Source: Pseudomonas phage Ph_15
Length of the DNA stretch: 43,260 nucleotides
Sequence record: PV845595.1
Direction: 5' to 3' (one strand)
Shown here: positions 31,789 to 31,830 of the stretch, piece by piece
Numbering within the stretch: position 1 is the first letter of the stretch
Layout of the letters: each line of letters begins with the position of its first letter
The notes under the pieces: generated by a model
What the model was told of the DNA's origin: nothing
Databases searched by the model: none
What the model saw: the letters and a program-made list of their open reading frames with translations, nothing else
Translations under genes and position numbers: made by a program

Positions 31789-31830
31789 ATCATAAACACC
31801 CAATTGCAAAATTGCAACCCCCGGTTTTCA
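31789..31830 (-). promoter_or_regulatory. Sigma70-like promoter, copy 1 of a conserved extended motif. Minus strand reads GAAAACCGGGGG-TTGCAA-tTTTGCAATtgggtgtt-TATGAT.
   Basis: -35 TTGCAA (complement of 31812-31817), 17-bp spacer, -10 TATGAT (complement of 31789-31794). Lies in the 90-bp gap upstream of the AAA_24 gene. Confidence 0.55.

Follow-up and report, generated by a model that had tools for sequence, protein, structure and literature searches.

The early promoters of bacteriophage T4 have an extended consensus. The Pseudomonas phages LUZ24, 14-1, and PAK_P3, which depend on the host RNA polymerase, use sigma-70-like promoters (PMC10914365), and inter-operon overlaps between a terminator and the following promoter were described for Salmonella in 2019 (PMC6735719); the latter are the closest precedent for the nested junctions discussed here. 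We analyzed the 43,260-nucleotide (nt) sequence of Pseudomonas phage Ph_15 (record PV845595.1; this whole stretch is referred to as the window) and focused on three related elements on its minus strand, copy 1 (31789-31830), copy 2 (36505-36545), and copy 3 (42325-42365). A preliminary description of this DNA had presented them as near-identical host promoters overlapped by a shared regulator-binding site. Based on sequence comparisons, we put at roughly 75% the probability that the three elements are sigma-70-type (RpoD) promoters at which the host RNA polymerase restarts leftward transcription, with copies 1 and 2 nested in hairpins. What is newly seen is that the A-rich block lies at the position of a proximal UP subsite and that a nested hairpin is present at copies 1 and 2.

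Results

Each element joins a -35 hexamer to a -10 hexamer: TTGCAA (31817-31812) and TATGAT (31794-31789) in copy 1, TTGCAC (36533-36528) and CATAAT (36510-36505) in copy 2, and TTGCAA (42353-42348) and CATAAT (42330-42325) in copy 3. The window reads identically to the three minus-strand sequences quoted previously. For TTGCAM-N17-YATRAT, 0.09 exact matches would be expected by chance; three are present, and none of 100 shuffled sequences contained at least three. When one mismatch was allowed, a single extra site appeared, at 8011 on the plus strand and within coding sequence. The motif search that had been suggested thus returns exactly three copies in the window, and a blind repeat search also brought the same three places out as one family (D3).

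The similarity around the hexamers is uneven. GGGGGTTGCA is found at copies 1 and 2 only, and the TTGCAAnTTTGCAAT block, with at most one mismatch, at copies 1 and 3 only, copy 2 carrying a 1-nt insertion. This block is not equally dense in coding sequence, where copies of TTGCAAnTTTGCAAT are not above chance. Upstream of copy 3 the sequence reads AAACCCCTCTAG, and the features that this copy has in common with the other two are the -35 element, the GCAAT of the spacer, and the -10 element. Hence, of the three near-identical extended copies proposed earlier, copies 1 and 2 are full ones, and copy 3 is partial, as it does not share the A-rich/G-run block.

The properties of the elements are those of sigma-70 promoters. 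The -35 hexamers agree with TTGACA at four of six positions and conserve TTG, the -10 hexamers fit the TAnnnT pattern with A-11 and T-7 conserved, and the spacer, for which 17 ± 1 bp is expected, measures 17 bp at all three sites. The sigma-70 assignment made in the preliminary description is supported, and relatives provide comparative evidence for it (see below). All three sites are intergenic and on the coding strand, with start codons 30 to 110 nt downstream. The minus arm has six internal gaps of >60 nt, and three of these hold the sites (31747-31836 for copy 1, 36468-36564 for copy 2, and 42210-42363 for copy 3); the remaining three contain hairpins and no promoter-like hexamers. Copy 3 precedes a 345-amino-acid (aa) open reading frame (ORF) and the helicase block, copy 2 the nuclease/exonuclease block, and copy 1 the gene for a RecA-like AAA_24 ATPase. 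The claim that the sites subdivide the leftward arm ahead of gene blocks thus holds.

Reading in the direction of transcription, copy 1 consists of the A-tract GAAAA (31825-31829, about -47 to -43), GGGGG (31822-31818) abutting the -35 element, the spacer element TTTTGCAAT (31803-31811), previously termed the second half-site, and the -10 element with a GGG discriminator (31788-31786) behind it. Copy 2 has the A-tract GGAAAA (36541-36546), a G-run, a spacer element that matches the family consensus exactly (ATTTTGCAATCG, 36516-36527), and a -10 element located at the apex of a small internal hairpin, CGCAUAAUGCG (36512-36502). Copy 3 (42325-42353), with the spacer TTTGGCAATCCATGCGG, has neither the A/G block nor an enclosing hairpin. 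A GG or GGG after the -10 element resembles a favorable discriminator. The proximal UP subsite, whose position Estrem et al. reportedly defined in 1999, is said to span about -46 to -38. Its consensus is AAAAAARNR (PMC4132738), and AAAA is present at -46 to -43 in copies 1 and 2, as is AAAAAT at -47 to -42 in the family, with nothing comparable in copy 3. From this position, we infer that the A-tract at -47 to -42 acts as a UP subsite. Since it could be used by the RNA polymerase alpha subunit, it is not evidence for a separate regulator.

Judged by position, sigma region 4 would contact TTGCAA at -35 and sigma region 2 would contact YATRAT at -10, with the alpha C-terminal domain using the A-tract at -47 to -43 of copies 1 and 2 as its proximal UP subsite and the GGG past the -10 element serving as a favorable discriminator. 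Transcription is predicted to start near 31782-31781 (copy 1), 36498-36497 (copy 2), and 42318 (copy 3), the last with a 5' untranslated region (5'UTR) of about 108 nt. Antisense promoters arising from the palindromic TTGCAA were considered and rejected, as no acceptable plus-strand -10 element could be found by eye.

The comparative support comes from diverged phages. Homologs of the ATPase downstream of copy 1 that are 45 to 57% identical are encoded on contigs that measure about 43 kb and share the gene order. Twelve distinct diverged relatives (L113/L114, L118, L054, L049/L050, L051, L052, L115, L116, L117, L119, L120, and L121) carry the same element ahead of the ATPase gene; in L117 it stands one small ORF further upstream than the gap before the ATPase gene. 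The family consensus is AAAAAT-n-GGG-TTGCAw-wTTTTGCAATCG-N5-TAnnnT-GG, and alignment of copies 1 and 2 with nine relatives' sites gave AAAAAT-c-n-gGGG TTGCAa aTTTtGcAATcG-N5 TAT.aT GGg. Invariant in these 11 sites are A at -46 to -44, G at -37, TTGCA, A-11, and T-7, and the -10 hexamer varies at positions 1, 3, 4, and 5 only, as a -10 hexamer read by sigma-70 would be expected to do. All 16 aligned family sites have TTGCA, and none has TTGACA as its -35 element. The spacer is 17 bp long in 15 of these 16 sites. In the mid-arm site of L116, it is 18 bp long. In copies 1 and 3 and in L049 the length is still 17 bp, though GCAAT sits 1 nt further from the -10 element; this points to a compensated insertion or deletion, which a constraint on -35/-10 spacing predicts and RNA structure does not. 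A 53-nt weight matrix built from eight distant relatives only was used to scan both window strands (86 kb). Copy 1 scored 36.0 bits and copy 2 scored 30.2, with the next best site at -7.8 (mean, -83; standard deviation, 17); copy 3 ranked 10th with the full 53-nt matrix. Conservation past the two hexamers, as the preliminary description had it, is thus borne out across a whole phage family.

The element has limits within this family. In relatives whose ATPase is 40 to 46% identical (L003 and most of the loci from IMG/VR), neither a gap ahead of the ATPase gene nor the motif is present, and thus the element is confined to the closer part of the family. Positional orthologs of copy 3, between homologs of the 227-aa and 345-aa ORFs, were found in L051, L052, L054, L116, and L117; they read TTGCAN or TTGTAG, 17 bp, and TATAAT, CATAAT, TATAGT, or TATACT. 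A mid-arm promoter comparable with copy 2 is present in L094 and L116 and not in L054, where the helicase gene is directly followed by homologs of the genes downstream of copy 2. Between the helicase gene and a 100-aa ORF of the window (36030-38800, minus strand) lie eight small orphan ORFs without a counterpart in the relatives examined, except for a 145-aa ORF with a weak match in L052. The lack of counterparts and the L054 gene order together place copy 2 in a lineage-specific accessory region, and copy 2 looks, from its sequence, like a duplicate of the copy 1 type. An IMG/VR pattern scan matched 35 contigs, of which only PaP2 had three copies; proteins related to those of the window were encoded by none of the single-copy contigs. 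The possibility of a widespread host regulon motif was rejected, as the strict extended pattern had only 2 and 3 matches in metagenomes and bacterial genomes, respectively, all unrelated and without a -10 element at the right distance; in bacterial genomes, its frequency does not exceed chance.

The 13 kb of the window that contain them are 94 to 97% identical to 15 GenBank records of Pseudomonas aeruginosa podophages (named among them PaP2, PaMx41/33/35/43/46, 119X, Neko, TF17, FBPa48, and 20Aug470), which NCBI taxonomy assigns to the Fredfastierviridae, genus Jamesmcgillvirus, the 119X/PaP2/PaMx41 lineage; the window is a P. aeruginosa podophage of this lineage. In a comparison of 12 genomes of the genus over this region, 15% of alignment columns were variable overall. 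The copy 1 gap falls entirely inside the longest invariant run of the region (133 nt, 31727-31859), and the adjoining ATPase gene is likewise unusually conserved. The hairpin and promoter of copy 2 form a 57-nt invariant run (36489-36545). In copy 3, both hexamers are invariant and five other positions of the 41-nt core vary. One of these changes is in PaMx41, which reads TTTAGCAAT, a G-to-A change in the second half-site; at the A/G difference in the copy 3 spacer, the window is the odd one out among the 12 genomes.

In copies 1 and 2, the GAAAAYCGGGGG block and the -35 element form the 5' arm of a terminator-like hairpin with its 3' arm downstream of the -10 element, a structure missed in the preliminary description. 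In copy 1, GGGGTTGC (31821-31814) is the 5' arm of an 8-bp stem in which GGGGUUGC pairs with GCAACCCC (31774-31767), followed by GCUUUUAG (tail GCTTTTAG, 31766-31759). In copy 2, the G-run, the -35 element, and AT make up the 5' arm GGGGGTTGCACAT (36538-36526) of a 13-bp stem (14 bp with G.U pairs counted), GGGGGUUGCACAU pairing with AUGUGUGACCCCU, two pairs of which are G.U, and with UUCUAAUU following; the 3' arm is ATGTGTGACCCC(T) (36501-36489) and the U-rich tail is TTTCTAATT (36489-36481). The -35 element thus lies within the 5' arm, and the 3' arm lies 2 to 14 nt past the -10 element. The copy 2 stem is followed by UUUCUAAUU and the copy 1 stem by GC and UUUU, with varied tails in relatives, and the upstream A-tract (in copy 1, GAAAA) is able to lengthen the stem by pairing with the tail. 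The predicted folding energies are -23.0 kcal/mol for copy 1 and -22.7 kcal/mol (z = -2.8) for copy 2. When the downstream sequence was shuffled, stems as good were obtained in 1 of 300 cases for copy 2, 0 of 300 for L049, whose 13-bp stem is perfect (AAAAAUUCGGGG/CCCCGAAUUUUU), and 2 of 300 for L113. The arms of L054 and L049 differ by two changes, with pairing kept only as U.G and G.U, and the 3' arms facing UUGC read GCAA, GCGA, or GUGA. Such differences are wobble compatible on the sense strand only, which points to an RNA structure on the sense strand.

From these features, copies 1 and 2 are probably nested terminator-promoter junctions. Read-through RNA would contain both arms, GGGGGUUGC(ACAU) and (AUGUGU)GCAACCCC-type, and could fold into a stem with a U-rich tail that would act as a leaky terminator or 3'-end stabilizer. 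Since the predicted starts lie inside or before the 3' arm, transcripts of the embedded promoter would lack the 5' arm and escape. Each junction would in this way uncouple downstream expression from upstream read-through.

A number of observations weigh against this reading of the three elements, in its promoter part and in its hairpin part. Judged by hexamer match alone, the sites score no more than 9/12, the region holds no excess of promoter-like sites (28, versus 31.5 expected), and neither the preference for TTGCA over TTGACA nor the invariant AT of the spacer is accounted for by known RNA polymerase contacts. The copy 1 stem is not significant by itself (28 of 300 shuffles were as good; z = -1.3). 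The promoter is kept without a significant enclosing stem in L051, L052, L115, L116, L117, and L094, which makes the hairpin an add-on outside the conserved core. As terminators, the structures are atypical, as the RNA between the arms, itself partly structured, measures roughly 25 nt in copy 2 and 40 nt in copy 1; loops of about 3 to 10 nt are thus exceeded, and a consensus scan with 3- to 8-nt loops omits both hairpins. The copy 2 tail is TCTCT (UCUCU in the RNA), a weaker U-tract, in TF17, FBPa48, and PaMx43, and L118 retains the stem with A6 directly after it. Canonical short-loop terminators are used elsewhere in the genome (24057-24089 and 30235-30208). Termination at copies 1 and 2 is therefore probably leaky, given the enclosed 25 to 40 nt and the tails of these relatives.

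What the known contacts leave unexplained is concentrated in the spacer. The A and T of GCAAT are invariant in the 16 sites, and the alignments indicate that the spacer element TTTTGCAAT(C/T)G is under selection. To this extent, the earlier claim that conservation exceeds the needs of RNA polymerase is supported; the part of that claim that concerned the A-rich block is not, as this block sits at the proximal UP subsite. It is possible, although we consider it unlikely, that TTGCAA-n-TTTGCAAT binds a phage repressor or activator over the -35 element and spacer (TTTTGCAATCG being the candidate protein-binding sequence), which would time "middle" replication-arm genes or maintain a carrier state; this would be compatible with sigma-70 promoter identity. 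The spacer element is conserved where the neighboring ATPase is only 45 to 57% identical, TTGCA never gives way to TTGACA, and, TTGCAA being self-complementary, the block is also an imperfect 14- to 15-bp palindrome. Furthermore, the canonical early promoter at the left end, the leftward TTGACT-16-TAGAAT (1938-1965, minus strand), is present as previously described and lacks the extended motif. Turbid plaques and episomal pseudolysogens are known from a close relative (PMC13348215), and PaMx41 has distinct temporal classes, reportedly four. On the other hand, Pfam, PHROGs, and NCBIfam searches with about 35 nonstructural ORFs, including the small ones, gave no helix-turn-helix, Mor/C, sigma-like, or other DNA-binding match, and all were orphans. 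The tandem TTGCAA repeats are 8 bp apart, start to start, in copies 1 and 3 and 9 bp apart in copy 2 and most relatives, so that there is no fixed helical spacing of half-sites as in an operator or activator site, and the register to the -10 element shifts by 1 nt. The TGCAA half is degraded in L049, L051, L116, and L117, with an AATCG/GATCG core kept, several copy 3 orthologs lack the element, and PaMx41 carries its G-to-A change in copy 3. Of the earlier proposal, the promoter part is supported; the operator is at most a candidate, given that these searches recognized no DNA-binding protein, the two repeat distances, and the PaMx41 sequence.

A local RNA hairpin, GUUGCA/UGCAAU, was rejected as the cause of the second half-site: 90.6% of alignment cells pair, there is no two-sided covariation, and only 3 of 11 deviations keep the pairing, which is uninformative, as the 5' side is frozen as the -35 element.

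More speculative still is the idea that the whole block from -47 to -18 (AAAAAT-n-GGG-TTGCAw-wTTTTGCAATCG) is a composite site, at which a conserved phage protein would read TTGCA/GCAAT(CG) together with RNA polymerase as an activator, repressor, or sigma-appropriation factor. If so, the factor would time the replication-arm genes or silence them in an episomal carrier state, and the nested hairpin would be a terminate-and-restart switch, with downstream expression set by the factor only and not by read-through.

It seems improbable that copies 1 and 2, at least, do no more than terminate a long leftward transcript independently of Rho or form hairpins for its processing, with a coincidental likeness to promoters. 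The copy 2 stretch is annotated as a terminator in the GenBank records of PaMx41, PaMx46, and PaMx35, stems with U-rich tails occur in copy 1, copy 2, L113, and L049, a structured RNA is suggested by the G.U pairs on the sense strand, and other gaps of the arm also contain hairpins. However, in copy 3 and half of the relatives, the -35 element, 17-bp spacer, and -10 element occur without an enclosing stem, and invariance coincides exactly with the positions that are critical for sigma-70 (TTG, A-11, and T-7). In addition, the 17-bp spacing is maintained through an insertion or deletion, the -10 element lies in the loop, where a pure stem-loop would not constrain it, and an Rfam search of the whole window found no RNA family match.

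Recognition by another polymerase or sigma factor (sigma-54, an alternative sigma factor, or an unrecognized phage RNA polymerase, such as one within the 1849-aa virion protein, which has no recognizable domains) is hardly credible, for although TTGCA is also a sigma-54 -12 element and so fixed a TTGCA in the -35 hexamer is unusual, the sigma-54 pattern (TGGCAC-N5-TTGCW) is unmatched within three mismatches at all three minus-strand sites and occurs at chance level in the genome (147 versus 156), single-subunit polymerases recognize an uninterrupted motif of about 20 bp around the start site and not a -35/-10 pair, and Pfam, PHROGs, and PDB sequence searches of the large ORFs detected no RNA polymerase domain, in agreement with the earlier statement that a phage RNA polymerase gene is absent. 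The sigma-54 reading of TTGCA, which calls for GG-N10-GC geometry, was rejected after this explicit pattern search.

The 1849-aa virion protein (18492-24041, plus strand) belongs to phrog_16165 and has no Pfam or PDB sequence match; it is 49 to 58% identical in most family relatives and 34% identical in the more distant L094. It may contain a very remote enzymatic or RNA polymerase homolog.

The minus arm runs from 43047 to 24097 and encodes a Dda-like helicase, a PDDEXK nuclease, an RNase-H-like exonuclease, the RecA-like AAA_24 ATPase, a family-A DNA polymerase, a DUF3987 primase-like protein, a MazG-like protein, and Acb2, among many orphan ORFs. Its final gene (24097-24390, minus strand) encodes an Acb2/Tad1 hairpin-domain protein (Pfam PF24729; E = 3.6e-18), the anti-CBASS sponge known from PaMx41 gp24. 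Downstream of the copy 1 unit lies a canonical intrinsic terminator (30208-30235, minus strand; 12-bp stem, 4-nt loop, T6), which is annotated as a terminator in relatives. The next start codon is only 34 nt past it (stretch 30174-30235, minus strand), which leaves no room for a promoter, so that the polymerase/primase module would need read-through from copy 1 or a promoter within coding sequence. The 114-nt gap preceding the DNA polymerase gene contains a 13-bp stem, TTAGTCCTCTCCC/GGGAGAGGACTAA, with a 27-nt loop (29768-29820, minus strand), without a U tail and without promoter-like hexamers, which may serve in RNA processing or stability. Where the two arms converge, the bidirectional terminator (24057-24089, both strands) has the 10-mer CCCCTCTAGT in common with 42354-42364 (minus strand), directly upstream of the copy 3 -35 element. 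Near both genome ends, at 1985-2030 (plus strand) and 43090-43180 (minus strand), the words CCTTGGC, CCTGGC, and CCTTGACC recur and adjoin a G-rich hairpin region (2060-2100); they may be replication, packaging, or early-promoter signals.

Two further hairpins were noticed in relatives. L051 (about 395-420) and L052 (about 725-745) share the hairpin GTCAATTTTTTGAC in the 5'UTR after the copy-3-like promoter, with no counterpart in the window. In L117 (610-650), an early promoter, TTGCAT-17-TATACT, lies inside a 15-bp hairpin, AUAGGCGAGGAUUGC/GCGAUUCUCGCCUAU, so that a promoter is again nested in a stem, with different arms.

Discussion

Public records of this lineage annotate ribosome-binding sites and terminators and no promoters, and copy 2 is labeled there as a terminator only. 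PaMx41 is a workhorse of CBASS/Acb2 research, and the three putative restart points, together with the family consensus, provide a testable transcription map of the replication arm that should be useful in phage engineering. For instance, insertions in the gaps at 31747-31836 or 36468-36564 would be expected to disrupt promoter and hairpin alike. With a length of about 75 nt, the junction would be a compact natural terminator-promoter cassette that could serve as an insulating part in Pseudomonas. The invariant spacer element, moreover, offers a starting point in the search for a regulator in this family, in which every early protein is an orphan.

The elements belong to known kinds, namely, host-type phage promoters with a UP-like tract, two of them in terminator-promoter overlaps. 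Like sigma-70 promoters with a proximal UP subsite, they have a -35 element, a 17-bp spacer, a TAnnnT -10 element, an A-tract where AAAAAARNR lies, and a G-rich discriminator, and like the sigma-70-like promoters of phages, they are intergenic, stand ahead of gene blocks, and occur as several near-identical copies per genome. They differ from such phage promoters in that the -35 element is fixed as TTGCA instead of TTGACA, in that the spacer contains an element with invariant GCAAT positions, and in that they are known from sequence only.

At the lambda CII sites of pRE, pI, and paQ, the sequence TTGC-N6-TTGC is found. The middle promoter Pm of phage Mu has a Mor site and a partial UP element (PMC4390567). 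The window promoters resemble both systems in a repeated TTGC-containing tetramer or hexamer around the -35 element, a partial UP element, and a possible link to temporal class or lifestyle. Unlike in these systems, the repeats are 8 to 9 bp apart, start to start, and not 10, the first repeat is itself a good -35 element, a good -10 element is present, and no CII-like or Mor-like protein was detected among the window ORFs.

With regard to the hairpins, copies 1 and 2 resemble Rho-independent terminators in having a stem rich in G+C, with an A-tract before it and a U-rich tract after it; they differ from these terminators in enclosing about 25 to 40 nt with a complete promoter and in a U tract that is short (copy 1) or variable (copy 2). 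As in the Salmonella overlaps, the terminator-like structure of the upstream unit overlaps the -35 and -10 elements of the promoter that follows, all of the intergenic space is taken up, and adjacent units would be coupled or uncoupled at the junction. In the phage genome analyzed here, in contrast, the whole promoter is inside the hairpin, the 3' arm falls in the initially transcribed region, about 25 to 40 nt is enclosed, and termination is deduced from sequence.

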